From assembly GCA_034670305.1 (NCBI GenBank), contig JAXMNT010000003.1:192001-256000 (forward strand): a DNA stretch of 64,000 nucleotides. The letters run 5' to 3'. Shown piece by piece: positions 5,111 through 57,552 of this stretch. The DNA is from Deltaproteobacteria bacterium (GTDB lineage: Bacteria; Myxococcota_A; Polyangia; Polyangiales; Houyiibacteriaceae). Positions within the stretch are counted from its first letter, which is position 1. Each line of letters starts with the position of its first letter. The notes beneath the pieces were generated by a model. That model saw nothing but the letters and a program-made list of their open reading frames with translations, was not told the origin of the DNA and ran no database searches. The translations under genes and the position numbers were made by a program.

Positions 5111-5758
5111 ATGATCAGCGAGTTCTGGTTCCCCGACGCGGGTCGTCCCGATCCGTCGAAGTTGGATGGTACGTGGGATGTTGTGGTCAGTTCCGGGCGC
5201 AAAGTCCTCCTCGTCAGTGCGACGCGTTCGACCGAGTACTGCATTCTGACCGGAACCGACCTCGAAGTTCGCTCGGCCCTCACAGACGGGTTGGTCCGCG
5301 ACGGGGTCTTGGAGGCACAGTCCGCCGGCGCCGTGTGTCGAGTTCAACTCACCGAGCTGGAGCGCTTCGTTTCGAAGAGGACACCAGTGGTGATCCTCCA
5401 CCCGCTCTTGACCTACATCGACGGCGGGCCGGATGTTGTTTCTATCGAACGACGGCTCCAGACGCTTCTCGGGGGCTGGCACGATGGCCTTGTTGGATCG
5501 CTGACGATGTTGGAGCAGTGCGAGGTTATGGAAGCGCAGCTGGAGAACCGGGAGGGGGCCCTGGCGACGGCTGTTGGGGAGCTCGCGTTACTGCACGTGC
5601 ACCCCTACTTTCCGCAGGATGCGCCTGTCTTCTTGGAGCTGATTCGAAGCAACGGTCCAGAGGAAGACCGGCTGGCCAAGTTCGAAGCATGGAACAAGAG
5701 CGTGGACTTCAAGAAGCGCATGTCGTCCTTTATCGGAACAGGGATTTTCGGCGCCTGA
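5111..5758 (+). CDS. Hypothetical protein
   Basis: 215-aa ORF with globular composition and lower GC. Confidence 0.6.
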   Translation: MISEFWFPDAGRPDPSKLDGTWDVVVSSGRKVLLVSATRSTEYCILTGTDLEVRSALTDGLVRDGVLEAQSAGAVCRVQLTELERFVSKRTPVVILHPLLTYIDGGPDVVSIERRLQTLLGGWHDGLVGSLTMLEQCEVMEAQLENREGALATAVGELALLHVHPYFPQDAPVFLELIRSNGPEEDRLAKFEAWNKSVDFKKRMSSFIGTGIFGA

Positions 5759-5924
5759 GCACCCAGCATTCGGAAGCGATGGCCGTCGCGACTGCTGACC
5801 TTCCGGAGAGTGAGCGCCTCCACGAGCCTGCTGGCCGGTTGTCGCGGGCGATGGAGACGACTGGCCTCGGCGGACGGTGACTCGGTCGGTGTCGCTCAGG
5901 CCGGCGCGCTTCCCGCAGATCCCA

Positions 5925-7606
5925 GCAGATCCGTCCCAGGTGCTCGCAATCAGGTTGGTCTCGTAAGGACCATTTTCGCTGGTGGGCATGTTTCGAAGCA
6001 GGGAGAGCTGCTCTGCGCCGGTCACCGGCGGCCCCGAAAGTCGTGAACGAGACCCAGTTCTGCTCGGCCTGCGCTCGATCTGGGACTGCGGACGCAGCGA
6101 TGCGCCGCGTGGGACTCACGCGGCGTGTTCGCAAACGCGGATGTGGTTACTGGGGTGGGTCGGAAGTCCGGGGTGGTCGGCCGGCAGGTTCGGTCGCGTC
6201 GCCTGACGCGCGTGGTCGACCGCGGCGGGCGTCTCGCATGACGACCACGCGGCGGGCTTCGCTTGGCTGATTCTTGTCGAAGCGATGTCGGACGACCGCT
6301 TCGGGTCGGTCGCTTGTCTCGAGCAGCTCCGCCGGGACCCGCGGGGGCTCCGACACGAACTCCATCGCTTCGGCTCGCACGACAGCCGCGGCCTCGTCCC
6401 TGAACGCGGTGCCGACTTCGGCGAGTACGCGGGCGACTTGTTCGTCGTCGGCTGTGACGGGGTTGAGCCGGAGTTCGGCCTTCACCTCGTCGAGGGTGGG
6501 CTCGGGACCAGTGATGAGCAGGGCCGGATCGGCGGGCTCGACGTCGATCGGGAAGAGCTTCCGCATCTTGTACGTGCCGTACGGAAACGGGATCGGATCG
6601 CCCGCGCGGAGCGCTTTCACGCCAGCGCGGTGGGTGCGCCGAAACGTGGTGACCTCCGTCTTGGCTTGAATGTGCACGCGGCGTCCGTTGATCCCGGAAG
6701 CACCTTGCTTGTAGCTCGGCACGACTTCGCCGCCGGCCGTCCGCCGGGTGCGGGGCTCGCTGTACGGGTGGATGCGCTTGGTGCGTTGCACACCCATCAC
6801 CGGCCACTTGCGGGCCGCGTTCAGAGCTCGGATCGCTTCTCTCTGCAGCCGGCGCATGTAGTAGATCAGCTGGTCGAGATCGCCGTTGAACTTGCGGTAC
6901 AACCGGGCGGGCGGATTGAACCACACGTTGACGTACTCGTCGCGCAGCCTCGGATCGAAGTAGAACTCTGGACGCCGCACGCGGATGGGGATCCCCTTCC
7001 ACAACGAGAAGTCGAACACGAAGCCCGGCATGTCTTCGGGCCGCCTCACGAGACCAGCGGCGACGCATTGCACGGACTCGTAGACGAGGTGGGCGGCCTG
7101 CGCTTCGGCATCGAGCAGCCGCATGTGGTGGGTCGCGCGGTCGTCGAAGATCTGACCCGGCTGGTCGTACCGCTCCCGGCCGAACAGCGTATTGAGCGCG
7201 CAACTCAGCTCGCCATGAAACAGCCGAAGGAACTCCGGGCGCTTCTCCTCGTTGTCGGTGAGGTCGAGGTGGTGGTGGTTGATGACCTTGGTCGCGCAGT
7301 GGAGGGAGACCCCCGTCTGCTGCTGCGCATGCCCCAGCGCGTACAGCCACGCCTGGTCCACACCCGGATGCCAAGGCGCCAGGAACGCCTTCCGAAAGTT
7401 CGTACGACGCGTCAGCGCATAGCTCGCACCGCGTACGACTGGCCGTGCATCAGACACGCTTCGCACAGAGCACACCCCATGCCGTCTCCGTTTCTCGGAC
7501 GTTTCAACGATTTCGGCTGGCGCCCGCCACCCAACCGCCGGCGGCCCGCCACCACCAACGGCTGCGACCCAGGCAACAGACTCTCGAGCACCTGGGACTG
7601 ATCAGC
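5925..7606 (-). mobile_element. RAYT-like HUH transposase element, copy 1 (1682 bp, 22-bp imperfect inverted ends)
   Basis: Left end GCAGATCCGTCCCAGGTGCTCG; right end reverse complement GCTGATCAGTCCCAGGTGCTCG (20/22); near-identical to 18847-20528. Confidence 0.85.
6147..7457 (-). CDS. RAYT-like Y1/HUH transposase
   Basis: YALTRRT..R.AFL, INHHH (HUH), VYESVQCVAAGLVRRPED (Y..NPV.AGL-like). Confidence 0.8.
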   Translation of the reverse strand: MSDARPVVRGASYALTRRTNFRKAFLAPWHPGVDQAWLYALGHAQQQTGVSLHCATKVINHHHLDLTDNEEKRPEFLRLFHGELSCALNTLFGRERYDQPGQIFDDRATHHMRLLDAEAQAAHLVYESVQCVAAGLVRRPEDMPGFVFDFSLWKGIPIRVRRPEFYFDPRLRDEYVNVWFNPPARLYRKFNGDLDQLIYYMRRLQREAIRALNAARKWPVMGVQRTKRIHPYSEPRTRRTAGGEVVPSYKQGASGINGRRVHIQAKTEVTTFRRTHRAGVKALRAGDPIPFPYGTYKMRKLFPIDVEPADPALLITGPEPTLDEVKAELRLNPVTADDEQVARVLAEVGTAFRDEAAAVVRAEAMEFVSEPPRVPAELLETSDRPEAVVRHRFDKNQPSEARRVVVMRDARRGRPRASGDATEPAGRPPRTSDPPQ

Positions 7607-43921: not shown

Positions 43922-46387
43922 TCAGAGGCCGCCGACGTCTACTTGGTAGCTGCCGAAGGAGCTGCTGAAGTAGCCGTCGACGTGCAGGACGTAGAGGCCG
44001 ACCGAGTTGACGGCCGCGCTCACGCTGGACTGCACGCTGCAGCTGTCGTCGTCGCAGGCGATCTGGCCTGAGGCGCCGTGGACGTGCAGCACCGTGTCGA
44101 AGCTCGTGCCGGTGCAGGTGGTTGCGGTGACGTTGCCGGTCACGCCCGAGCAGCGCCCGAAGTAGTAGCCGTTCTCTGGCCCGCTGCCGTTGCACGTGCT
44201 CGACAGCGTGCCGGTGCCGCTGGTGGTGCCGGTGTAGCTGCCGTTCGTCGAGATCATCGTGTACGTGCCGTTGCCGATCGGGACCGACTGCCAGCGGAGC
44301 TGGATGGCCCCGTTGGTCGTGGCCGACGAGAAGGCGTGCACGGCGATGTAGTAGGTCCCCGGCGCGAGCACCCGCATCAACCGCTCCTGGGTCACGCCGC
44401 AGTCGTCGTCCTCGCACTGGGCCGCCGCGCCGCCACAGGAGGTGCGAAGCGAGATCGAGGTGTCGAACGTGGATCCAAAGGTGTCGACATAGAGCACCGA
44501 GCGGGTCGACAGCGTGATCCGGTACCAGAGCTCCCCGCCGTTGCGGCAGTCCGTGACCGAACGGGACGCGTTCGCGTAGGTGTCGCTCATCGTGCCGCTC
44601 GTCCCAGACAGAACGGTCGCGCCGGTGCACTGGTCGTTCGGGGCGCCACAGCCTTCGTCGACCATGCCGTTGCCGTTGTCGTCGCAGCCGTTGCCGCACG
44701 TCTCGGTGGCCGCCGCACAGCTGTTGAACGAATCACAGCCGGCCTGGCATGTCTGGCTCCCACTCGTGCCGCACGAGGTCGTGCAGCTCCGGATCGCGCC
44801 GAGCCGACAGGTGAACCCATCGTCCGCGGTTCCGTCGCCGTCGTCGTCGCAGCCGTTGCAGACCTCGGTCGCGATGCACGCGCCGTAGCCGCCGCAGTCG
44901 AGTCCGCAGGTCTGCGTGCCCGAGGTGCCGCACGCGGTGGTGCACGACCGGGTGGTGCCGCGTTCACAGGCGAACCCTTCGTCTCGGAGTCCGTCGCCGT
45001 CGTCGTCGCAGCCGTTGCAGGTCTCGGTCGCGGCCACACACGCGCCAAAGCCGCTGCAGTCCGCCGCACAGCTCTGGTTGCCGCTCGTGCCGCACATCGT
45101 GGTGCAGCTGGCCGAGGTTCCGAACACACAGCCGAGGCCATCGTCGGCCACTCCGTCGCCGTCGTCGTCGCAGCCGTTGCAGGTCTCGGTCGCGGCCACA
45201 CAAGGCGTGCGCGTACAGCCCGCGGTGCAGCCCTGCATGCCGCCGGTGCCGCAGCCGGTCGTACACGCGACCGGCGCGGAGCCCACGGCGCAGACCATGC
45301 CCGGGCCGTCGTCGCTCGTGCCGCTGCAGTCGTTGTCGAGCCCGTCGCACAGCTCGGTGCCGGCCGGGTTCACGCTCGGGTTCAGGTCGTCGCAGTCGTT
45401 GCCGCCGTCGCAGCCGACCGCGGTGTAGCCGTCGCCGTCGGCGTCGCTCCCGAGGTGCTCACACATCGCGGAGGGCTCGAGGCACCGGTCGGTGGTGCAG
45501 GAGATGCCATCGCCGCAGTCCACCGGCGTACCGGCCACACAGCCGGCGATCGCGTCGCAGGTCTCGTCGCCATCGCACACGGTCGCGTCTCGGCAGAGCG
45601 AGTCGTCGGGTCCGTGCGCGCACGCGTCCGCGCCGGCGTCGCACGAGTCCACGGTGCAGGCCACCCCGTCGTCGCAGTCGGGCGCCGCGCCCGCGATGCA
45701 GTCCATCGTGGGGTCGCAGACTTCGTCGCCGTTGCAGAACGTGCCGTCGGCGCAGACGCTCGCATCCGGGGTGTGTTCGCAACCGCCCGCACCCTCGGAG
45801 CACGTGTCGATCGTGCACGACACTCCGTCGTCGCAGTCGGGCGGGTCGCTCGCGGCGCAACCGTTCGCGTCCGCGGCCGGGTCGTCCGGCGCGCACACCT
45901 CGGCGCCGTTGCAAAGGATGCCGTCGTCGCAGGGTGCGTCTTCGGGTTCGTGGGTGCACTCGCCGAGTTCGGTCGAACACGCGTCCAGCGTGCAGCCGAG
46001 TCCGTCGTCGCAGGCGGGCGCTTCGCCGCGTTGGCAGCCGGTCGATGGGTCGCAGGTCTCGACGCCGTTGCAGAAATCGCCGTCGTCGCAGGACTCGTCG
46101 GAATCACACGGCGGCCGCAGCACGCACCCCATCGCGGCGTCGCACAGCTCGGTCTCCGCACAGAGGCGGTCGTCGATGGCGTTGCTGCAACGTCCCGTGA
46201 CCAGGTCGCACACGTCTTCGGTGCAATCGATGGCGTCCGCGCACTCGATGTCGGTGGTGCATCCCATGGGAGGCGCATCCACGACGGCGCCGTCCCCGCC
46301 GGTCCCGCCGTCCGCCTCCTCCATCTTGCCGGAGGCACACGCCACGAGGACACAACAAGCCAACCCAACCCCACGAATACGCAACAT
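43922..46387 (-). CDS. Cys-rich lipoprotein with putative metal-binding repeats and PPC-like domains
   Basis: Lipobox LVAC; CDDG..CT.D.C repeats; ETCNGCDDDGDG repeats; FDT...CDDD...YVLHVDG. Confidence 0.85.
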   Translation of the reverse strand: MLRIRGVGLACCVLVACASGKMEEADGGTGGDGAVVDAPPMGCTTDIECADAIDCTEDVCDLVTGRCSNAIDDRLCAETELCDAAMGCVLRPPCDSDESCDDGDFCNGVETCDPSTGCQRGEAPACDDGLGCTLDACSTELGECTHEPEDAPCDDGILCNGAEVCAPDDPAADANGCAASDPPDCDDGVSCTIDTCSEGAGGCEHTPDASVCADGTFCNGDEVCDPTMDCIAGAAPDCDDGVACTVDSCDAGADACAHGPDDSLCRDATVCDGDETCDAIAGCVAGTPVDCGDGISCTTDRCLEPSAMCEHLGSDADGDGYTAVGCDGGNDCDDLNPSVNPAGTELCDGLDNDCSGTSDDGPGMVCAVGSAPVACTTGCGTGGMQGCTAGCTRTPCVAATETCNGCDDDGDGVADDGLGCVFGTSASCTTMCGTSGNQSCAADCSGFGACVAATETCNGCDDDGDGLRDEGFACERGTTRSCTTACGTSGTQTCGLDCGGYGACIATEVCNGCDDDGDGTADDGFTCRLGAIRSCTTSCGTSGSQTCQAGCDSFNSCAAATETCGNGCDDNGNGMVDEGCGAPNDQCTGATVLSGTSGTMSDTYANASRSVTDCRNGGELWYRITLSTRSVLYVDTFGSTFDTSISLRTSCGGAAAQCEDDDCGVTQERLMRVLAPGTYYIAVHAFSSATTNGAIQLRWQSVPIGNGTYTMISTNGSYTGTTSGTGTLSSTCNGSGPENGYYFGRCSGVTGNVTATTCTGTSFDTVLHVHGASGQIACDDDSCSVQSSVSAAVNSVGLYVLHVDGYFSSSFGSYQVDVGGL

Positions 46388-46485
46388 ATCCGGCCAGGAT
46401 ACAATTTCCCGCGGGTTCGCGCCCCCTCCCGGCCGGTCTTTCCTTGGCCATCGGATGAGTGAGCGGCAATCGCCCGAACGCCCGT

Positions 46486-48210
46486 TCAGTCGGCGGGGCG
46501 CGGAACCGGCTGCATGGCGTCGAACCCAAAGGCCCGGATGTGGTTCACGTGCTGTCCCCGACAGGTGGTCTCGTAGCGGCAGTCCGAACAGCGCAGGCTC
46601 TTCACGAAGTAGTGCTCGTCGACGTAGCGGCGGATGTAGCGGAACGGCTCGAGGGTGCCGTCGGGCGTGGTCATCGCGGTGTCGTGGGTGGAGGGCTTCG
46701 GGCGTGGCTCCCGCCCGAGCACACAGGCAGGCACCCCTTCCACCGGCGTGTCCGCGAACGGGTGCTCGGTGAAGAACGCGACCAGATCGAGGTCGTTGCT
46801 GCGCGCTTCGGTGAGCCGCTCCCAGGTGGGCTGAAAGAGCGCCAGCCGCGCTGGCACCGTCTCGAGCCGGCGGAGCCAGTCCTCGTTGTCTCTCGAGAGC
46901 TGCAGACAGACCTCGAAGGTGCCGAACCCGAGTAGCGTCTCGGCGTCTTCGAAGCCGCGCACCCGGCAGGCGGTCAGCGTCTCGAGCGAACCCGCCTCGA
47001 GCGCCGCTTCGACCCCGCTCCAATCGTCGAGTTCGAGCACCAGCTCGGGAAGATCGAAGGGCTCGACGGCGGCGAGCGCAGCGGACAAATCGGGCGCGAC
47101 CACGTGAAGCACTCGGCTGCCGCGTGCGGCGACCCCCGTGGGCGGTGCGTACTGGAGCGCGACCATCGGCAGGCGCTTCTTGCGGCGCCCGTCACTCGCC
47201 GGGTCGCCACCGAACTGCGGCCCCATCGCGGCTTCGGCGCGCGTGTCGATGCGGATGACCTCCGGCGTGTCTTCGAGCATCGCGCGCTGGCTCTCTTCGA
47301 ACGTGTCGCAGACGTTCTTCAAGTAGCAGTAGCCGCAACGGCGCGGCTCGCGGCAGTCCAGCGGCTCGCCGGTCTTGACCCAGTGCTCGAACTCCTGGCG
47401 GCGTCCGCGCACTTCGTCGTGAAGCTTGTAGGGATCCTGGATGAGCTCGTGAAACCCCTCGCAGTGCGCGACGGGGAACCGGTTGAGCCAGATGTGCATG
47501 TTGGGCTTCTTGGCCCAGCGGAACGCAGCGACCAGGTGCTCGCGGTTCTTCTCGAGGTCGTAGAAGAGGACCTCCTTGCCGTCCTTCCACGCGTTGCCGA
47601 ATGGAATCACGTGGAGGAGATCGAACTCGCGCACGCCGAGGCCGACGAACTTCTCGATCATCGCGTCGAGGTGCTTCACGTTGCCGCGGTTCACGCACAC
47701 ATCGATGTTGATGATCGGGCGCCCGTCTTCGAGCGCGTTCATCAGGCCGGTCATCTCTTCGTCGAACGCGCCTTTCACGCCGACGAGCGCGTCGTGCACT
47801 TTCGCGTTCGGCCCGTGGATCGAGAACGTGATCTCTTGCAGACCCGCGTCGAGACACGCCTTCAGGAACTCCGGGTACTTGAACATGCGACCGTTGGTGA
47901 CGGTCTGGACCTTTTCGTAGCCGGCCAGCCGGCCGAGCTTGATGAAGTCCACGTAGCGCGGATGAATGGTGGGTTCGCCGCCCGACAGGATCAGGCGCTG
48001 GGCGCCCTTGCGCCGGCCATCGAGGATCTGCTGCTTGACCTCTTCGGGCTCGCGCATGCGTCCGTCGTGCGCGTCGGTGTCGAGGCAGAAGATGCAGTGA
48101 TCGTTGCAATCAAACGTGAGGCGGACCCAGTTCCGTTTCTGGTGGGCCGCCTCTTCATGCTGTTCGACGAAGCTTCCTCCGTCCGTCAGCGCACGCTGCT
48201 CTTCGAGCAC
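46486..48210 (-). CDS. Radical SAM protein, HxsC-like, with second degenerate Cys module
   Basis: CNDHCIFC, SGGEPT, TNG, FSIHG; Cys motifs CGYCYLKNVC and CSDCRYETTC. Confidence 0.9.
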   Translation of the reverse strand: MLEEQRALTDGGSFVEQHEEAAHQKRNWVRLTFDCNDHCIFCLDTDAHDGRMREPEEVKQQILDGRRKGAQRLILSGGEPTIHPRYVDFIKLGRLAGYEKVQTVTNGRMFKYPEFLKACLDAGLQEITFSIHGPNAKVHDALVGVKGAFDEEMTGLMNALEDGRPIINIDVCVNRGNVKHLDAMIEKFVGLGVREFDLLHVIPFGNAWKDGKEVLFYDLEKNREHLVAAFRWAKKPNMHIWLNRFPVAHCEGFHELIQDPYKLHDEVRGRRQEFEHWVKTGEPLDCREPRRCGYCYLKNVCDTFEESQRAMLEDTPEVIRIDTRAEAAMGPQFGGDPASDGRRKKRLPMVALQYAPPTGVAARGSRVLHVVAPDLSAALAAVEPFDLPELVLELDDWSGVEAALEAGSLETLTACRVRGFEDAETLLGFGTFEVCLQLSRDNEDWLRRLETVPARLALFQPTWERLTEARSNDLDLVAFFTEHPFADTPVEGVPACVLGREPRPKPSTHDTAMTTPDGTLEPFRYIRRYVDEHYFVKSLRCSDCRYETTCRGQHVNHIRAFGFDAMQPVPRPAD

Positions 48211-48287
48211 GGGCGCACTGTACTCGATCCCCGCCCAGACACCCGAGAGTTGTTGACGGCCGGTTCTGTGGATGGCCCGATCCCGCC

Positions 48288-49124
48288 ATGGGAATCGTCC
48301 CCAACCCGGATGGCCACCCGGCCCGTCCAGCGCTCTTCGCGCTCGCATTGTGCGTGTTCGGCGGCTTGGGGACGGCCCACGCCCACGCACAGCCCCAGAC
48401 CCCAGGCCGGTACACCCTCCGGCCCATCACGGTGGGAGAGGGCGCGGTTCGGTTCAACGGCCAGTTCTCCGTGACCCGATTCGAAACACTCCCCGGCGAG
48501 TACGACATCCGCGTGCACAGCGCGTTGGGGGTGGCCTACGGCATCGACGACGACTTCGAGGTCGGCGCGAGTTCTCAGCCGATCATGGCCTTCGGCGGTG
48601 GCGACCTGGTGGGGGTCGAGCTCTCGCCCGATCCAGACATCTCCAACACTTACCTCTATGGCCGGTATCGGTTTCTCCACCAAGAAGCGATCGAGATGGC
48701 GGGAGAGGTCGGGATCTCGGTTCCTTGGCGCGGGGTGTTCGGGTTCGTCCTGGGTCTGCCAATTCGGCTCCGGGGCGGCCAGTGGTTCGCCCTGGACACG
48801 GGCGCGGCATTCACAGTGCGGTTCGGGGATCCCACCACACCAGGCGCCATCTTTCCCTTCCGCCCGAGGGTGAGTGCCGGGAACTTCTACTTTGGCCTCG
48901 ACACCGGCGTGTACATGGACGAACTCCGAGTCGACCACATGATCATCCCGTTGGAAGCGGAGCTCGGCGTCGCGTTCCCAAACCGCACCATCGTCTGGGA
49001 CCTGTACGTTCATGGCGGATTGCCGCTGTTTCTCAGACCCAGCCGGCCCACGCCGATCGAGGAGCAAGTCTTCCTCATCTACTTCGGCTTTCGCCTCTAC
49101 GTAGACACGCGAAGCACGCGCTGA
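48288..49124 (+). CDS. Outer-membrane beta-barrel-like protein
   Basis: Signal peptide AHA; amphipathic strands; C-terminal YFGFRLY. Confidence 0.65.
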   Translation: MGIVPNPDGHPARPALFALALCVFGGLGTAHAHAQPQTPGRYTLRPITVGEGAVRFNGQFSVTRFETLPGEYDIRVHSALGVAYGIDDDFEVGASSQPIMAFGGGDLVGVELSPDPDISNTYLYGRYRFLHQEAIEMAGEVGISVPWRGVFGFVLGLPIRLRGGQWFALDTGAAFTVRFGDPTTPGAIFPFRPRVSAGNFYFGLDTGVYMDELRVDHMIIPLEAELGVAFPNRTIVWDLYVHGGLPLFLRPSRPTPIEEQVFLIYFGFRLYVDTRSTR

Positions 49125-49171
49125 CCAAGACGGGGCAGCGGCGAACCGCCTGGGGCGGTATGCTGCGCGCG

Positions 49172-51499
49172 ATGCCTACGACCCCGCCCCAACCGACGAC
49201 CCGCGTGCTCGTCGTTCATCCGCCGATGTCGGTGGCGCGGGACTTCATCGACTACCCGTACGTGAGCAACCTCGGCGCCGCGCAAGTCGCCGCGGCGTTG
49301 GCTTCGAAACCCACCCTCGATGTCCAGTACGTCGATTCGTTTGCCCTGCCGGGTTCCACCTTCGCCTGGTTCGACGACACGAGTCCTGCGTTGGCCGGGC
49401 GCGCCTTCGCCGGCGCCACCAACGACGAGGTGCTCGCTCGGTGCCGGCCCGCGGACGTCGCGGTCGTGGCGCTCACGCCCTTCCATCGGCCCGGCGTGGT
49501 CGACGCCAACCTGCGCGACCTGATCGAGGGTCTCCCAGCCGACCGCGTGATCCTCGTCGACGCCTACCAGTCCGGTCAGCACCACGTCGACGCCGATACG
49601 GTCCTCACCGACTACCCGGCGGCGCACGCCTGGCTCCGGTACGAAGCCGAGCGCGATCTCGAAGCGTTGATCGTCGGCGGAGAAGCCGGCGTGCACTTCG
49701 GCGGCCGCCCGGACATCGACGCCCTGCCCTTTCCGGCGTGGGATCAGATCGACCTCGAGGCCTACTGGCGCTTTCAGTCGCGCTTCGTGCATGGGCTCGG
49801 CCGTGGCAGCTGGGCGTTCCCCATCGGCCGCAGGACGTTGCCGATGGTCACCTCGCGTGGCTGTCCGTTCACCTGCACCCACTGCAGCAGCAACCCGGAC
49901 GTCGCCTCGGGCGGCGGACCAAAGATCCAGCGCCGCCTCTCGGAAGCGCGGCTGCGTGCGCACCTGCAGTACCTGGCGGGGCTCGGCGCCGACACCGTCT
50001 ATGTGCTCGACGAACTCATCAACGTTCGGCGCGATCACTTCGACGTGTTCCTCGATGAGATCGAGAAGCTCGACCTGAAGTTCGAGGTCCCGAACGGGTT
50101 CCGCGCGGACTACCTCGAGCCGCGTCACTTCGCGCGCATGCGCGGCCGCGTGACCACCGTCAGCGTGAGCGCCGAGAGCGGCAGCCAGCGGGTGCTCGAC
50201 GAGGTCGTGAAGAAGAAACTCGAGCTCTCGGCCATCACCCGCGCCGCCGCCAACGCCGAGAAGGCCGGGCTGCCGCTCCTCATCCACTACATGATCGGGC
50301 TGCCCGGCGAGACCGCGGCCGAGGTCAACGAGACCTTGGCGTTCGCGCTTCATCTCTGGGACGAACACCGCGCGTGGCCGGCCGTGCAGTTCGCGACGCC
50401 CCTGCCGGGCACCGAGATCGCGCGGCAGCTGACCGCGAGCGCCGGTTCGCTTCCAGTCGTCGACGACTGGGGCCCGCGCTTTCAGGGCGGCCCATCGGCG
50501 AGCCCGGACACCGTGGACGCGGCCACCCTCGAGCAGTTCATGGCGACCTTCCGGCACCGGCTGCGCGAGAGCCAGGGCCCGAAGAAGCTGATCATGAACG
50601 TGACGTACGTGTGCAACAACCACTGCACGTTCTGTGCGGTCGGCACCCGCACCCAGGTCGATGGACACCCGACGCGGCAACGCGAGATCCTCGACACCTA
50701 CCGCAAACACGGCATCACCCTGGTCGACTTCGACGGGGGGGAACCCACCCTCAACCCGGAGCTCATCCCGCTGATCCGCTACGCGCGCCGGATCGGATTC
50801 GAGCGCATCAACGTGACCACGAACGGCCGACTGTGCGCGTACGAGGACTTCGCGAAGAAACTCGTCGAGAGCGGCCTGACGACCTTGCTCTTCAGCGTGC
50901 ACGGTCCGGACCTTCGGTCGCACGCCCGCGAGGTCGGAGTGGCGGAAGCGTTCGGCCAGACCATGAGCGGGATCGATCACTGCGTCGCGCACAGGCCGGA
51001 CAACGTCGAGCTCGGCATGAACGTCACGCTGACCAAGACCAACTACATGCGGCTCGAGGACCTGGCGCAGCTGGCGTTCGACCGCGGGCTGCCATGGCTC
51101 AACATCCAGTTCCTCACGCCGTTCGGTCGCGCAACGACCGAGGTCGCGCCGGACACCGAACATGCGGCGGAGATCACCCGCGGCGTCATCGACCGCTGGA
51201 AAGACCGCATCAAGATCCAGGTCATCAACCTCCCCTGGTGTTTCATGCCCGGCTACGAGTCCTACCTCGCCGGCGACGCGGCCAAACTCGCGCGGCACAT
51301 GGTCTTCGTGAACAACGAGCGGGTGAACCTCGCCGAGTACCTGGCGGCGCGCCGCGTGCGGAAACCCGTGTGCGAGACCTGTCCGCACGCGTGTTTCTGC
51401 GGAGGCTTCTACGAGCTCGAGGACGTGCCGGAGCCGGAGTGGCTCGTGTCGGCCGAGTCGCTTCTCAAACGCACCGATCCCGACGTACGTCTCCGCTGA
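49172..51499 (+). CDS. B12-binding-type radical SAM fused to a second HxsC-like radical SAM
   Basis: SRGCPFTCTHC, AESGSQRVL, MIGLPGET, TPLPGT; then CNNHCTFC, GGEPT, TNG, LPWC, CETCPHACFC. Confidence 0.92.
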   Translation: MPTTPPQPTTRVLVVHPPMSVARDFIDYPYVSNLGAAQVAAALASKPTLDVQYVDSFALPGSTFAWFDDTSPALAGRAFAGATNDEVLARCRPADVAVVALTPFHRPGVVDANLRDLIEGLPADRVILVDAYQSGQHHVDADTVLTDYPAAHAWLRYEAERDLEALIVGGEAGVHFGGRPDIDALPFPAWDQIDLEAYWRFQSRFVHGLGRGSWAFPIGRRTLPMVTSRGCPFTCTHCSSNPDVASGGGPKIQRRLSEARLRAHLQYLAGLGADTVYVLDELINVRRDHFDVFLDEIEKLDLKFEVPNGFRADYLEPRHFARMRGRVTTVSVSAESGSQRVLDEVVKKKLELSAITRAAANAEKAGLPLLIHYMIGLPGETAAEVNETLAFALHLWDEHRAWPAVQFATPLPGTEIARQLTASAGSLPVVDDWGPRFQGGPSASPDTVDAATLEQFMATFRHRLRESQGPKKLIMNVTYVCNNHCTFCAVGTRTQVDGHPTRQREILDTYRKHGITLVDFDGGEPTLNPELIPLIRYARRIGFERINVTTNGRLCAYEDFAKKLVESGLTTLLFSVHGPDLRSHAREVGVAEAFGQTMSGIDHCVAHRPDNVELGMNVTLTKTNYMRLEDLAQLAFDRGLPWLNIQFLTPFGRATTEVAPDTEHAAEITRGVIDRWKDRIKIQVINLPWCFMPGYESYLAGDAAKLARHMVFVNNERVNLAEYLAARRVRKPVCETCPHACFCGGFYELEDVPEPEWLVSAESLLKRTDPDVRLR

Positions 51500-51508
51500 G
51501 ATGCTGAG

Positions 51509-52471
51509 ATGACCGCGTCGACACGGCCCGGAGCCGACGCCTCCGACCTCGCGTTGCTCGACGTCGTGCTCGACTACGACTGCAACCTCGGGTGCCGCTA
51601 CTGCACGTTGACCGCCGAGATGCGTCGGCGCGGGCTCCGGACCGACACGGTGCGGCGGGCGATGCGGGCCGCCCGGCGCGATGGGTTTCAGGCCATCTCC
51701 TTCACCGGGGGCGAGCCCACCATCCGCCCCGATCTGCTGCCCCTGATCCGCGAAGCGCGCGCGCTCGGATACACATCGATCAAAGTGCAGACGAACGGAC
51801 TGGTGTTCGCGGAACGGAAGAACCTCGAGCGGCTGCTCGCCGCGGGCACCACCGAGATCCACCTCTCGATCCACACCCACCTCGCCGAGGCCTACGACGA
51901 TCTGGTCCGGCGCGAGGGTGCCTACGAGCGGATGAAGCAGGCCGCGGCCAACCTCGCGGGCGTGTCGGATCGGGCGACGGTGTTCTCGGATCTGGTCGTG
52001 CTCCGCAGCACGCTGCCAGTGCTCGCCGACGCGGTGGACTGGTGCGCGGACCTCGGCTTCACCGCCGGACACCTCTGGTACTACTCGGCGACCGACGAAC
52101 AGGCCGGGCGGACCGACCAGATGCCGAGCTTCGAAGAGGCGATGCCGTCGATCCTCGCAGCGCTGGAACGGGCGGAGGACCGCGGCTTCGATCTTCGGTC
52201 GCTGCACATCCCCCATTGCCTGCTGGGTCGCTTCGCCGACCAGGGCACGGACCCCACCGCGCGCACGGTTCGGGTCGCCACACCGGACGCGGTGTTCGAC
52301 CTCGCCGACAGTCCGCTCACCCCCAACGCGCGCATCCCCGCGTGCGTCGACTGTCCCCGCGCGACACGCTGCCGCGGCGTGCGGCGCGACTACCTCGCAC
52401 AGTACGGCGACGCGGAGATGGCCCACGCGCGCGGCCAAGCGCGTACCCTCTTGCCGGTGGTGCCCGGCTGA
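51509..52471 (+). CDS. Radical SAM protein, HxsC-like
   Basis: CNLGCRYC, TGGEPT, QTNG, IPHC, CVDCPRATRC. Confidence 0.9.
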   Translation: MTASTRPGADASDLALLDVVLDYDCNLGCRYCTLTAEMRRRGLRTDTVRRAMRAARRDGFQAISFTGGEPTIRPDLLPLIREARALGYTSIKVQTNGLVFAERKNLERLLAAGTTEIHLSIHTHLAEAYDDLVRREGAYERMKQAAANLAGVSDRATVFSDLVVLRSTLPVLADAVDWCADLGFTAGHLWYYSATDEQAGRTDQMPSFEEAMPSILAALERAEDRGFDLRSLHIPHCLLGRFADQGTDPTARTVRVATPDAVFDLADSPLTPNARIPACVDCPRATRCRGVRRDYLAQYGDAEMAHARGQARTLLPVVPG

Positions 52472-52750: not shown

Positions 52751-54343
52751 GTGCGCGTGAGCGACCCATTCCTCAGCACGCGGTCGCCCCTCGGTCCAGC
52801 CTGGACCCTCTGCGCGGTGATGCTGGCCGTGCTGGTGCCCACCACTGGATGCGCCAAGGGATCCGGGACCGGGTTCGACGTGAGCGTCGACCTCCGGACC
52901 GATCTGGTGCCGGGCGTCGAGTTCACCGCGGTGCAGGTCCGGCTGGAAGGCGAGACCACCACCCTCGAACCGGCGCACCCCGAACGCGACTACCTCGAAG
53001 GGGTCCGCGTCGCCGAGTTCGAGGGCGTCTCCGGCGGCGCGATCGAGCTGATCGTCGACGTCTCGAACGGATCCGGCGTGGTGGTGTCGCGGCGCGTCGC
53101 GGTGACCGTGCAGAACGACACCGCCGTGACCGTCGTCATCACCCGGGACTGCCGGGGCGTCGAGTGCCCGGGCGACGGCAGCACGAGCAACACCGCGTGC
53201 CTGGGCGGCGAGTGTGTGGATCCCTCGTGCACGCCCGAGACGCCCGAGTTGTGCCCGACCGCGGATTGCACCGTCGCCGCCGACTGCGACGCGCCGATGC
53301 AGGCGTGTTTGGAAGCGAACTGCATCGTCGGCCGATGTCTCTACGCGGACCGCGGCAGCTGCGGCGACGGCCGGTACTGCGACGAGCGCTCCGGCTGCGT
53401 GGACGTCGGCGTCGACGCCGGACCGATCGACGGCGGCGGCATGGATGCTGGAACCGACGCGGGTCCGTGCGGTTCGATCATGTGCGAGGGGTTCTCCATC
53501 TGCGATCCCTTCATCGGCGGGTGCGTGAGTCTGCGCGGCTGCATCGGGCCCGACGAGTGCGACAGCGGCGACATCTGCCGGAACTCGTACTGCGTGCCGG
53601 AGGACTACGACGTCGATGGCGACGGAGTGCCCGCCTCCGAAGACTGCGACGAACGAGACGCCGCCATTTCGCCCGACGCGACCGAGGTGTGCAACCTCGT
53701 CGACGACGACTGCGACATGATGGCGGACGAAGGCAACATCGGCGATCTGTGCGCGAGCGCGCCGGGCGGCGGCGAGTGCATGGACGGTGTGTGCGGCTGT
53801 CCTCCAGACCGGTTCGACGTCGATGGCGTGTCGAGCACCGGTTGCGAGTGCATGGCGTCGCCCGTCTCGACCGCCGGTCTGACGTGCGCGGAAGCGATCG
53901 ACCTCGGCTCGGTCTCCGACGTCGGCGAAATGACCATGGCGATGGCGAACGTCTTACCGGCCGACCGCGAAGTGTGGTTCCGCATCCTCGCGACCGACGC
54001 CGCGGACACCGCCTGCGACAACTTCCACGCCCGCATCCAGTTCCTCGAGAACCCGGACGACCGCTTCGAGTTCACGGTCTTCCGCGGCGGGTGCGGCGCC
54101 GCGACCTGTGCGGACATGGGCTACACGGACTTCAGCTGGGCCACCGACTTCCGCGCGACCATCGACGCGACTGAGACGGGGCAGTGTCCGTGCCTGTCGA
54201 CCGCACGCGCACCCGACGGGGTGGCGACGTGTTCGGACGACTCGTCGGTGCTGCTGGTGCGGGTGCGCCGCCGGGCGGCGGGTCCGATGCCAAGCTGCGA
54301 CGGTTTCGTCCTGGAGCTGAGCAACGGGGTCTACGACACCTGA
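52751..54343 (+). CDS. Cys-rich lipoprotein with putative metal-binding motif
   Basis: Lipobox TTGC; DCDE.DAAISP.ATEVCNLVDDDCD. Confidence 0.8.
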   Translation: MRVSDPFLSTRSPLGPAWTLCAVMLAVLVPTTGCAKGSGTGFDVSVDLRTDLVPGVEFTAVQVRLEGETTTLEPAHPERDYLEGVRVAEFEGVSGGAIELIVDVSNGSGVVVSRRVAVTVQNDTAVTVVITRDCRGVECPGDGSTSNTACLGGECVDPSCTPETPELCPTADCTVAADCDAPMQACLEANCIVGRCLYADRGSCGDGRYCDERSGCVDVGVDAGPIDGGGMDAGTDAGPCGSIMCEGFSICDPFIGGCVSLRGCIGPDECDSGDICRNSYCVPEDYDVDGDGVPASEDCDERDAAISPDATEVCNLVDDDCDMMADEGNIGDLCASAPGGGECMDGVCGCPPDRFDVDGVSSTGCECMASPVSTAGLTCAEAIDLGSVSDVGEMTMAMANVLPADREVWFRILATDAADTACDNFHARIQFLENPDDRFEFTVFRGGCGAATCADMGYTDFSWATDFRATIDATETGQCPCLSTARAPDGVATCSDDSSVLLVRVRRRAAGPMPSCDGFVLELSNGVYDT

Positions 54344-54357
54344 CCTTGGTGCGCGCC

Positions 54358-54963
54358 ATGATCGTCACTCTGCATGCCAGCCGAGCCGCGCCCCACAACT
54401 GGGTCGCCGGAGCGGACACCTTCGACGCCGCCTGGGCCGAGATCCACGCAGCGAAGCGGTGCACCGCGTCCGTGCGGGGTTCGGCGGACGTTGCCCCGGC
54501 GACACGCGTCCTCACCCTGGTCGAACGTTCGAACATGCGGGAGTTGCTCGCCCTCGCCGAACAGCTTCCGGCCGGCGCCGAGTGGTGCCTGCAGCTTCGG
54601 AGGGACGGCACCCGCAGCCCGCGGCTCGCGATGGCCGCGCCTCGGATCTTGCGGGCGGCCACCGCGGCTCAGAAGCGCGGTCTGCGGGTCGCCGTGCGCG
54701 CCGTGCCGCTCTGCCTGCTCGGGCCCTACACCGACCTGGCGCTGCCGGCGGTCCCCGTCGAAGCCGGGGGTCCCTGTGCCGAATGCCGCGCGCGTCTGCA
54801 GTGTGCCGCGCCCCATCCCGCGTATCTGACCCGGTTCGGGCCGTCCGAAGTCAGGGCCCGCGGGCCGGTCGAACTCGACGTCGCGCAACTCGAGCGCTTC
54901 GCTTGGGTGTTCGAGGACATGAACCCAGGGCCGGACAGTGCTATCTTGGGTCGCGATGGGTGA
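54358..54963 (+). CDS. Degenerate HxsC-like protein lacking the CxxxCxxC motif
   Basis: Only C-terminal features: TLHA..APH, RSN..EL, VPLC, CAECRARLQC, YLTRFG..E. Confidence 0.7.
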   Translation: MIVTLHASRAAPHNWVAGADTFDAAWAEIHAAKRCTASVRGSADVAPATRVLTLVERSNMRELLALAEQLPAGAEWCLQLRRDGTRSPRLAMAAPRILRAATAAQKRGLRVAVRAVPLCLLGPYTDLALPAVPVEAGGPCAECRARLQCAAPHPAYLTRFGPSEVRARGPVELDVAQLERFAWVFEDMNPGPDSAILGRDG

Positions 54964-55240
54964 CCACGACGATTGGGGCGACGACTTCGAAGAGGAGCTG
55001 CCTGCGTTCGCCAAGGACGCAGAAGGCGCACTCAACGGAGAACAACGCGATGTCTCGCGGCGCGCACTCGAGACCGCGGACGACGCGGTCGCCGGCGCGG
55101 ACCAGCACGGCGCACAGCACTGCAGCCACGGCAGCCACGGCTCCCATGGCTCTCACGGCAGCCATGGTTCTCACGGAAGTCATGGAAGCCACGGCTCGCA
55201 CGGAAGCCACGGCAGCCACGGCAGCCACGGTTCCTGGTAG
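54956..55240 (+). CDS. His-Xaa-Ser repeat precursor peptide (HxsA-like), 94 aa
   Basis: Acidic leader, then HCS+(HGS)x12-W with varied synonymous codons. Confidence 0.9.
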   Translation: MGDHDDWGDDFEEELPAFAKDAEGALNGEQRDVSRRALETADDAVAGADQHGAQHCSHGSHGSHGSHGSHGSHGSHGSHGSHGSHGSHGSHGSW

Positions 55241-55243
55241 CGC

Positions 55244-56317
55244 TTGGACCCCCGCGTACGATTGCCGTTGCTCGATGGCCCAGAGCTCGATGCTGGGGTG
55301 CTGGACGTCGTCGGCCGGATCTCCGAGAAGCGCGAACGGGTCCACATCCTCACCGGCGCGGTCTGCAACAACAACTGCATCTTCTGCATGGAAGAGGATC
55401 GGGACGGACGAAAGGTCCTGAACTCGCAGACGGACGACGCGATGGTCGCCCGCATCCTGAAAGAGAACACCGAGGCTGGGTCGATCTGCGAAGAGATCTG
55501 TTTCACCTCCGGCGAACCGACCACGAACCGGCGGCTCATCGCCTGGGTGAAGATGGCCAAAGCGGCGGGCGTCGAGCGCATCAGCGTGATGACCAACGGC
55601 CGGGCGCTGTCGTACGACAAGTTCACGCGCGGACTCGTCGCCGCGGGCATGAACCGCTTCTACGTGAGCATTCACGGCCACACCCAGAAACTTCACGAGT
55701 CCCTCGTGCGCACGCCGGGCGCCTTCGATCAAACGGTCGCGGGCATTCGCGAGGTGGCCAAGCTGCGACGCTACGGGGTCGAGTTGCACACCAGCACCGT
55801 GCTGACGAAGCGCAACCTTCCGCACCTGCAGGACATCTACGACTTTCTCCGTGGGCTCGGCGTGGGTCAGGTGGTCTTCAACGTGATGCAGGCCAACGGC
55901 CGCGCGGACACCCACTTCGAGCGCATCTTCCCGCGGTACTCGGACATCGCCGCGCAGGCGGCCGAGTTCGTGACGGCTGCCCAGGCCGCGTCCGGCGACG
56001 CCGAGGTGCCCGCGTTCTTCATCGACATCCCACTGTGCACCACCACCGAGCTGCCGGACTTCAACCGCGGCTACGTCGAGTCCTACAAACACTACGAACC
56101 CGACGACGGCGGCGACGGCGGCCACGACCAGCGGCTCTCGGTCCTCGACCGAGTGCAGGGCGATCTGGTCGAAGTGCGCCGGAGCGATCTGGACGACGAC
56201 CTCAGAGAGAAGCGCGACGCGTGCAGCCGCTGCAAGTACGACAAGGCCTGTGAAGGCGTCTGGGTGAACTACCTGCGCCGCTTCGGCTGGGACGAGATGG
56301 TCCCGGTCATCGACTGA
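55244..56317 (+). CDS. Radical SAM protein, HxsC-like
   Basis: CNNNCIFC, TSGEPT, TNG, VSIHG, IPLC, CSRCKYDKAC, YLRRFGWDE; starts 3 nt after the precursor stop. Confidence 0.92.
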   Translation: MDPRVRLPLLDGPELDAGVLDVVGRISEKRERVHILTGAVCNNNCIFCMEEDRDGRKVLNSQTDDAMVARILKENTEAGSICEEICFTSGEPTTNRRLIAWVKMAKAAGVERISVMTNGRALSYDKFTRGLVAAGMNRFYVSIHGHTQKLHESLVRTPGAFDQTVAGIREVAKLRRYGVELHTSTVLTKRNLPHLQDIYDFLRGLGVGQVVFNVMQANGRADTHFERIFPRYSDIAAQAAEFVTAAQAASGDAEVPAFFIDIPLCTTTELPDFNRGYVESYKHYEPDDGGDGGHDQRLSVLDRVQGDLVEVRRSDLDDDLREKRDACSRCKYDKACEGVWVNYLRRFGWDEMVPVID

Positions 56318-56442
56318 ACCACGGCAGGTGCAGCACAGGCCTGCACGACCGCCCTGGCTCGATCCGAGAGCCTGAACCCACAACTTTCACTGCTCAGCAC
56401 GGTTGCGATGGAATCGTCGCTCGTGGTGCACTTCGGGGACAG

Positions 56443-57552
56443 ATGGCGCGGATCATCGAGATGCTCTGGGACTGTTCGTCCTGCGGCACCCGCAACCGCG
56501 GGCGGGACATGCGTTGCACGATGTGCGGCTCTCCGAAGGAGGACGACGAGCGCTACGTGATGCCGGGCGACACGTCGGCGGCCCCGAGCGTGACGGACCC
56601 GAAACGACTCGCCGAAGCGCGGGCCGGACGCAACTGGCAATGCCCGTACTGCGACGGTTCGGTCCGCAACCTCCACGGCGAGTGTTCCGTGTGCGGCGGA
56701 CCGAGGACCGACCGCGCGGCGGCCGGGGAGCCGACCATCGACCTGAAGGGTGCCGCGGGCCGGCGCGCGGACAACCCGGACTTCGACAGCGAGGGCAAGG
56801 TCGTTTACCCGAGCGAACTCGACCAAGCGATCCGCCGGTTTCGGAGGGGGCGTTGGTTCGGCGTGAGCATCGTGCTGAGCATCCTGGCGGTTGTGGGCCT
56901 GTTCCTGCTCTGGTGGTTCCTGCCCCACGAGGTCGAGGTCGAGGTCGCGAGCATCGGCTGGGAACGCACGGTCGAACTCCAGCGGCGCCAGACCAACTCG
57001 GGGAGCGACTGGCGCGACCAGATGGCGGGCGGCGCATTCAACGTGTCGTGCTCGACTCGGCAGCGCGGTACCGAGAACTGCCACCCCTACACCTGCAACT
57101 GCCATCAGGTGACCGACTACTGCTCCGAGTCCTGCAACTGCCATGAGGTGTGCACGGACAACGGCAATGGCTACGCGAGCTGCAGCACCGAGTGTTCGAG
57201 CTGTCAGCACGAGTGCGGCAGCCACGAAGAGTGCGACACCTGCTACGAACAGTGCCCTGTGTACGCGGACTGGTGTTCCTACCAGTACTACACCTGGCCC
57301 ACGCTCGACCGCGAGACGACGCGGGGCAACGACCACGCGCCCTACTACAGCGACCGCCTCTTGGCCGACCCGGCCGTGAACGAGCGGCTCGTGTACGCGC
57401 AGCAGTTCGACGTGCAGTTCGAGGAGGACGACGACGTGTGGAACCACCGCCCCGATACCCTCGAGGAGTTCCTGCGTTACGACCTACACGAGACATGGCT
57501 CATCGAGGTGAACCACGCGGGCCAGGTCTGGCCACAGCACGCGGTGGAGTGA
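56443..57552 (+). CDS. Membrane-anchored Zn-ribbon / Cys-rich protein
   Basis: WDCSSC..CTMC and WQCPYC..CSVC ribbons; one TM helix; Cys-rich extracytoplasmic segment. Confidence 0.75.
   Translation: MARIIEMLWDCSSCGTRNRGRDMRCTMCGSPKEDDERYVMPGDTSAAPSVTDPKRLAEARAGRNWQCPYCDGSVRNLHGECSVCGGPRTDRAAAGEPTIDLKGAAGRRADNPDFDSEGKVVYPSELDQAIRRFRRGRWFGVSIVLSILAVVGLFLLWWFLPHEVEVEVASIGWERTVELQRRQTNSGSDWRDQMAGGAFNVSCSTRQRGTENCHPYTCNCHQVTDYCSESCNCHEVCTDNGNGYASCSTECSSCQHECGSHEECDTCYEQCPVYADWCSYQYYTWPTLDRETTRGNDHAPYYSDRLLADPAVNERLVYAQQFDVQFEEDDDVWNHRPDTLEEFLRYDLHETWLIEVNHAGQVWPQHAVE

Follow-up and report, generated by a model that had tools for sequence, protein, structure and literature searches.

A peptide gene of the HxsA4 His-Xaa-Ser repeat family within an enlarged Hxs cluster of a Myxococcota genome

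The window, that is the whole stretch of 64,000 nucleotides that was analysed, comes from a Myxococcota genome of the order Polyangiales (assembly GCA_034670305.1, contig JAXMNT010000003.1). Its G+C content is 67.4%, and it holds many long spurious ORFs. On the forward strand a short gene, hxsA4, runs from the ATG at 54956 to the TAG at 55238-55240 and encodes 94 aa. Residues 1-54 (54956-55117) form a leader, which is acidic, with 16 Asp+Glu against 4 Lys+Arg. The core at 55118-55237 consists of one HCS unit (55118-55126), twelve HGS units (55127-55234) and the C-terminal residue Trp, W94 (55235-55237). There are 13 His among the 40 core residues, and the Cys of the first unit is the only one in the peptide. 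An alternative start is the GTG at 54938; orthologues opening with M(S/A)DHD...WGDDFEEELP support the ATG as the likely start. The upstream ORF stops at 54961-54963 and shares 8 nt with the start of hxsA4 (ATGGGTGA), while only 3 nt separate the hxsA4 stop from TTG 55244, the earliest candidate start of the next ORF. A preliminary description of this DNA had pictured an HCS+(HGS)x12-W core behind an acidic leader, overlapping a "half-rSAM" gene upstream and lying 3 nt before the next radical SAM gene. The ORF and the codon recount bear out the first part, and the coordinates agree with the second.

Is the repeat array kept as DNA or as peptide? In the twelve HGS units His is encoded by CAC nine times and by CAT three times, Gly by GGC, GGT and GGA (7, 2 and 3 times), and Ser by AGC, TCC, TCT, AGT and TCG (6, 2, 2, 1 and 1 times), which matches exactly the mixed codon list drawn up earlier. 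Nine of the 12 DNA units of 9 nt are distinct, and the differences between units are synonymous without exception, serine codon-box switches included. Tandem Repeats Finder reports a 9-bp period for the array with matches of only 71%. The GC3 phase gives coding support for the neighbouring genes and is indecisive over the short repeat ORF. As to transcripts over 54300-56400, no RNA run with this stretch was found; the full matches were four DNA runs of one study, possibly from the source sample itself.

The next gene, hxsC4 (55244-56317, +), encodes a radical SAM enzyme that matches the NCBIfam model NF038332 with 567.9 bits (cut-off 500). Its start might be 55244 (TTG), 55262, 55268 or 55298, and the choice is uncertain. 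The protein has a CNNNCIFC motif at residues 41-48 and a C-terminal CxxCx5C motif at residue 327, and in 46 HxsC4 sequences the Cys residues 41, 45, 48, 86, 265, 327, 330 and 336 are invariant. With the canonical HxsC model (TIGR03977) the HxsC4 of the window scores 97.5 bits, under the cut-off of 267.9. HxsC4 is presumed to be a maturase acting on HxsA4. A scan for HxsC4 in species-representative genomes gave 225 relatives, and the best 80, all titled Myxococcota, were used for the comparison of loci. These best 80 of 225 come from Polyangiaceae, Sandaracinaceae, Nannocystaceae, Archangium and Kofleriaceae, and several belong to cultured Nannocystis strains.

On the other side of hxsA4, the gene at 54358-54963 (+) encodes a protein of 201 aa which is a paralogue of the C-terminal ~60% of HxsC4. 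The term half-rSAM, by which it had been described, is borne out by homology: in hhalign, its alignment with 24 relatives matches the HxsC4 alignment with probability 99.0 and E 4.7e-18 over columns 134-349 of 351. It has no Pfam or NCBIfam match, and its GC3 phase supports coding. It is without the CxxxCxxC SAM-cluster motif and keeps four invariant Cys (C119, C140, C143 and C149), which correspond to C265, C327, C330 and C336 of HxsC4 and probably hold an auxiliary Fe-S cluster. Of the best 80 of 225 loci, 25 have a relative of the half-rSAM within 6 kb of HxsC4 at a looser threshold, and 14 at a stricter one. In most relatives this gene stands after a MopE-like gene and convergent with hxsC4, not 5' of hxsA4. 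Its product may be a partner protein, a scaffold or a remnant.

The half-rSAM gene is preceded by one for a putative lipoprotein that is rich in Cys and bears a metal-binding motif of the MopE type (52751-54343, +; PF11617, 33.9 bits, cut-off 27). Relatives of this type occur in 9 of 21 HxsA4 contexts and, within 6-kb flanks, in 10 of the best 80 of 225 HxsC4 loci; the lipoprotein is a recurrent, inconstant neighbour. Cys-rich MopE-motif proteins at 43922-46400 (-) and 52751-54343 (+) bracket the radical SAM genes.

Three further radical SAM genes lie between these two, and their relatives were counted within 6-kb flanks of the best 80 of 225 HxsC4 loci. The nearest to hxsA4 is an HxsC4-like paralogue of 320 aa at 51509-52471 (+) with CNLGCRYC and CxxCx5C motifs; the NCBIfam model that fits it best, HxsC4, gives 71.1 bits and stays under its cut-off, and the paralogue has relatives in 22 of these 80 loci. 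Before it lies a two-domain radical SAM protein of 779 aa (49160-51499, +) with two CxxxCxxC motifs. Its N-terminal half resembles B12-binding radical SAM enzymes and its C-terminal half is HxsC4-like, a natural fusion with relatives in 11 of the 80 loci. The start at 49160 was chosen from the change of GC3 phase near 49150. The 296 codons of the same open frame 5' of it (48272-49159) show no coding GC3 phase, and a coding GC3 signal without family match lies in another frame at 48288-49124 (+). The third gene, at 46486-48390 (-), encodes an HxsC4-like paralogue of up to 634 aa with a Pfam Radical_SAM match, which scores 103.3 bits with the HxsC4 model and 86.5 bits with the HxsC model, both below the cut-offs. 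With the product of the radical SAM gene 3' of an HxsA4 in locus L045 it shares 67.6% identity over 142 aa, and it has relatives in 3 of the 80 loci. In all, five SAM-cluster motifs in four genes and a half-enzyme surround one peptide gene, and the locus in the window is an enlarged Hxs cluster.

The product of the gene directly 3' of hxsC4 (56443-57552, +) combines a RanBP-type zinc ribbon at the N-terminus with a membrane segment and a C-terminal region rich in Cys. Both this gene and the downstream SulP gene were considered as partners and set aside, for neither has a relative at the reporting threshold in the best 80 of 225 HxsC4 loci. PADLOC, run on nine proteins of the window and on the HxsB encoded elsewhere in the genome (see below), gave generic viperin-level radical SAM similarity and no defence family.

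To which family does the peptide belong? It matches NF038313, the NCBIfam model named "His-Xaa-Ser repeat protein HxsA4", with 91.6 bits (cut-off 55) and E 4.3e-26 over profile positions 1-93 of 93; a six-frame search of the genome gave 91 bits. Proteins named HxsA4 already exist in public NCBI records. Therefore the gene belongs to a curated family and its kind is already known; the preliminary description implied more novelty than there is, since the catalogue of His-Xaa-Ser families already includes this one as HxsA4/HxsC4. Four NCBIfam families match the peptide at E <= 0.01, and the canonical HxsA model, which we take to be TIGR03979, is not among them. The sole Pfam match is collagen, at 25.5 bits against a cut-off of 27.2, and an NCBIfam collagen-like adhesin model is far under its cut-off; both identities were rejected as reflections of the Gly-x-x periodicity of the repeat. 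The protein collection searched contains no exact copy of the window peptide, nor of the two other sequences looked up, a Nannocystis orthologue and the HxsC4 of a relative. The leader search proposed earlier was run with residues 1-58 against word-indexed proteins and returned 1 candidate and none at E <= 0.001; such a search needs shared exact words of 5 residues and says little. Orthologues were instead gathered via the HxsC4 enzyme and the NF038313 family model. Taken together, we consider it very likely that the ORF is hxsA4 and encodes the ribosomal substrate precursor in a myxobacterial form of the His-Xaa-Ser system for radical SAM maturation.

The gene order around the orthologues is consistent with this assignment. 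Among the best 80 of 225 HxsC4 loci, an HxS-repeat ORF ends just 5' of HxsC4 on the same strand in 60, and the complete order hxsD-hxsB-hxsA4-hxsC4 is found in 28. In contiguous relatives the order is D-(D-like)-B-A4-C4, with the HxsD-like gene flanked by hxsD and hxsB in 30 of the best 80 of 225 loci. In 22 of the same 80 of 225, counted with full flanks, the A4-C4 pair has no HxsB within 6 kb; cultured Nannocystis strains are among them, and the window is alike. The number of repeat units per peptide is 5-21 beside HxsC4 in the best 80 of 225 and 11-37 in a wider sample. It varies freely among orthologues, while the unit sequence stays HGS. Two Sandaracinus-like contigs (loci L112 and L113, about 5300-5975) carry tandem hxsA4 genes of 13 and 18 units before hxsC4. 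Absence of the ORF from orthologous clusters had been named beforehand as an observation that would speak against the peptide; the related loci were looked at, and the ORF is present in most of them.

An alignment of 39 orthologues, 54-78% identical to the window peptide, shows what is kept. All 39 retain the frame, the leader motifs and the terminal Trp, at least 90% have C56, and the leader follows the pattern LPxF...L...QRxISxRA..NAD. The Cys is not universal, since Nannocystis HxsA4 begins its array with HAS. Note that the serine boxes AGY and TCN are not interconverted by one synonymous step; both are present in 31 of the 39 arrays. In a few, the DNA units are almost all alike, for example with 2 distinct units of 12. 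Slippage thus alters the number of units while selection keeps the peptide. It was claimed in the preliminary description that the precursor is kept at the protein level and that selection acts on the peptide. The family match, the adjacency to a radical SAM gene in 60 of the best 80 of 225 loci, the invariant Trp, the nearly invariant Cys and the use of both serine codon boxes support this. Could the ORF still be a chance open frame, or a slippage-prone microsatellite with no peptide function? The GC-rich window, its spurious long ORFs and the indecisive GC3 over the ORF would allow it, and the nearly uniform orthologous arrays indicate recent slippage. However, a frame, leader motifs and terminal Trp kept in 39 of 39 orthologues at 54-78% identity, unit differences that are all synonymous even across serine boxes, and a curated model exceeded (NF038313) make a meaningless frame hardly credible.

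The rest of the Hxs system lies elsewhere in this genome (7.9 Mb in 105 contigs, 96% complete). On contig C55, the radical SAM/SPASM maturase HxsB is encoded at 47133-48542 (519.2 bits, cut-off 370) and the small partner protein HxsD at 48988-49248 (52.8 bits, cut-off 50), with an HxsD-like protein of 75 aa between them (NF038315, 64.1 bits, cut-off 41). The order there is ferredoxin, HxsD, HxsD-like, HxsB and a PLD-family gene (locus L102, 10089-13127, -). No peptide gene follows HxsB on this contig, and the group is unlinked from both peptide genes of the genome. The second of these lies on contig C2 (locus L010, 1405-1704, +) and encodes an HxsA4-like peptide of 99 aa that contains 16 HGS units, ends in Trp and lacks Cys. 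Upstream of it stands an HxsD-like pair (584-1105 of the same locus), one gene of which is just under the HxsD cut-off of 50 at about 47.8-49.1 bits, and downstream a gene for a TPR protein of 1256 aa; there is no radical SAM gene beside the second peptide on contig C2. The scattering of the Hxs genes is real and not an assembly gap, because the sequence is contiguous on either side of each locus.

Is the scattering peculiar to this genome? In a sample of 401 Myxococcota genomes, HxsA4 is over its cut-off in 124, HxsB in 140 and HxsC4 in 22, or 52 if matches at E <= 1e-60 are counted for HxsC4. A strong HxsA4 match (E <= 1e-12) is present in 121 genomes, 118 of them with HxsB, and 256 of the 401 have neither, kin in this sample not being independent. 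In the phylum sample HxsA4 thus tracks HxsB almost perfectly. In this same sample of species representatives, a peptide lies within 1.5 kb in only 4 of 21 other HxsC4 loci over the cut-off, thus the A4-C4 adjacency is not universal. In some of 20 wider HxsA4 contexts the peptide has HxsB on one side and, on the other, a different radical SAM enzyme that gives no HxsC match; in four it lies among housekeeping genes. These contexts indicate that the enzyme after the peptide is lineage-specific and that precursors are often unlinked.

How does this form compare with known systems? Haft and Basu are reported to have predicted the canonical His-Xaa-Ser system computationally in 2011 (cited in PMC9062424). 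According to Li et al. (Nat Commun 2026, PMC13128918), the canonical system HxsD-HxsB-HxsC-HxsA is anti-phage: it gives broad phage protection, blocks phage DNA entry and has a periplasmic product. The same study states that processing of the HxS-repeat protein in E. coli depends on each of HxsB, HxsC and HxsD, that HxsC binds HxsD and that function needs every HxS repeat; the modification given there is +8 Da with a single SHRSS motif, not -2 Da and not per unit (PMC13128918). The DNA-binding model of canonical HxsA rests on basic repeats, the genes form a contiguous four-gene operon, commonly D-B-C-A, and 99.7% of the canonical systems are in Pseudomonadota (PMC13128918). The genome studied here shares with it members of HxsB and HxsD, a tandem His-x-Ser target and two classes of radical SAM enzyme. 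Unlike the canonical target, the one here is a protein of 94 aa whose 13 uniform units follow an acidic leader and which contains a single Cys and ends in Trp; compared with the canonical effector it is without the peptidoglycan-binding domain, the basic repeats and any export feature. The cut-offs of the HxsA and HxsC models are not reached while those of the variant HxsA4 and HxsC4 models are; the genes are split over three contigs rather than joined in an operon; extra HxsC4-like paralogues and a half-enzyme are present; and the host is a member of Myxococcota, not of Pseudomonadota like the hosts of nearly all canonical systems. Within the variant itself there is no difference at the family level: NF038313, NF038332 and NF038315, which are annotation models without experimental work, are all exceeded in this genome. 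The names HxsA4, HxsC4, HxsA2 and HxsA3 were not found in the literature searched. Together with the predominance of Pseudomonadota among canonical systems, this leaves the myxobacterial HxsA4/HxsC4 form as catalogued by annotation models and unstudied in the literature searched.

What chemistry might HxsA4 undergo? The FxsA/FxsB pair is a Phe-Xaa-Ser system that has been placed beside the triceptides. Radical SAM/SPASM enzymes of triceptides join the C2 of His to the C-beta of residue 3 on H-x-x motifs, and HaaB and HtkB accept His as the first residue (PMC11499958). The thirteen H-x-S units of HxsA4 fit such a tandem aromatic1-X2-X3 motif, and HxsB is a peptide maturase of the SPASM type. 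However, HxsB scores far under the cut-offs of the cyclophane families. The nearest solved relatives of HxsB are 5wgg/5why and the anaerobic sulfatase maturase, and a relative's HxsB scores about 45-58 bits with the GrrM/OscB, YhhB and FxsB models against cut-offs of 310-445, a likeness at the superfamily level only. A link between the side chains of His and Ser within each H-G-S unit, by analogy with the triceptide enzymes, is the chemistry we favour, though at odds below even. The published +8 Da is at odds with a simple cyclophane in each repeat unit. Another comparison is TvgA/TvgB, which makes a poly-cyclopropylglycine peptide and whose published network also holds HxsB and HxsC clusters (PMC9062424). 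In that case too, one precursor carries a short motif many times over and a radical SAM enzyme works on it, but the motif, the chemistry and the enzyme cluster all differ.

A route of maturation might then be sketched as follows. The maturation proteins would grip the peptide by its conserved leader (LPxF...L...QRxISxRA..NAD). HxsC4, together with the SPASM-type HxsB supplied in trans, would modify the HxS units one after another, and HxsD, by homology to the canonical system, would act in trans with HxsB on HxsA4. The local HxsC4 paralogues may take part, and the leader would be removed afterwards. The strict register of three residues and the free number of units suggest that each HGS unit could be an independent modification site. 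Iterative modification, as put forward in the preliminary description, would fit known radical SAM systems that act on repeat peptides. A complex prediction with HxsC4, the HxsD of contig C55 and HxsA4 residues 1-69 gave a score of 0.02 against a mark of 0.32 in a run without controls, and is given no weight for or against the route.

There is a further question, what the product of HxsA4 may be for. One reading makes HxsA4 the myxobacterial counterpart of the HxsA defence effector, which, once matured, would block phage DNA entry at the envelope. The maturation enzymes HxsB and HxsD are common to this genome and the canonical system, and the four-gene canonical system protects broadly against phage and needs every repeat (PMC13128918). 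Yet HxsA4 has neither a peptidoglycan-binding domain nor a signal peptide, its X residue is Gly or Cys and not basic, its leader is acidic, and PADLOC places no defence model among the neighbours except the generic viperin-like radical SAM similarity; the 99.7% share of Pseudomonadota among canonical systems (PMC13128918) also counts against it. We regard a defence role as possible but doubtful. Alternatively, the (HGS)n core, modified or not, might be a polyvalent chelator of Ni, Cu or Zn for storage, buffering or delivery; polyvalent metal binding had also been suggested in the preliminary description. The 13 His per 40 core residues with one Cys would suit such a task, as would the MopE-motif Cys-rich lipoproteins which flank the cluster and recur in 9 of 21 HxsA4 contexts. 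However, a MopE-like neighbour is found in only 10 of the best 80 of 225 HxsC4 loci, there is no conserved metal transporter or regulator nearby (SulP is below threshold in all 80 of these), and for binding alone neither the set of radical SAM enzymes nor the strict register of three residues would be needed. Metal handling as such is in our view unlikely.

A bolder reading unites the chemistry with the peptide: rather than a defence effector, myxobacterial HxsA4 would be the precursor of a so far undescribed natural product, its HGS units (5-37) being closed into small His-Ser rings or otherwise modified by HxsB, HxsC4 and its paralogues into a rigid poly-imidazole rod that binds metals or ligands, with the Cys and the Trp as end caps or anchors. 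We think this rather improbable; if true, such a product would be made by about a third of the sampled Myxococcota species. The features of the canonical effector, the peptidoglycan-binding domain and the basic repeats, are absent in HxsA4, and a use of the product other than phage defence or metal handling is a real possibility, though we would stop short of calling it probable.

As a gene, hxsA4 of the window is an ordinary member of a catalogued family, and it opens no new category. The HxsA4 type is nevertheless common in Myxococcota (124 of 401 genomes), tracks HxsB, is often scattered and is unlike the characterised HXS in every effector feature. It is therefore a good test of whether one His-Xaa-Ser maturation chemistry is used for several purposes. 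The cultured Nannocystis strains with an A4-C4 pair are possible carriers for experiments. The NCBIfam HxsA4 family reaches beyond the myxobacteria, and its members from Omnitrophota and Elusimicrobiales have a hydrophobic leader segment and mixed X residues, whereas the myxobacterial form is acidic and uniform. In four such HxsA4-type proteins, from Omnitrophota, Elusimicrobiales and metagenomes, the N-terminus is basic and the repeats are preceded by an FL.SEEGK motif and a hydrophobic segment; these proteins resemble membrane-anchored or secreted ones, which the myxobacterial form does not. In these four the X residues are a mixture of A, G and S, and most end in Trp.
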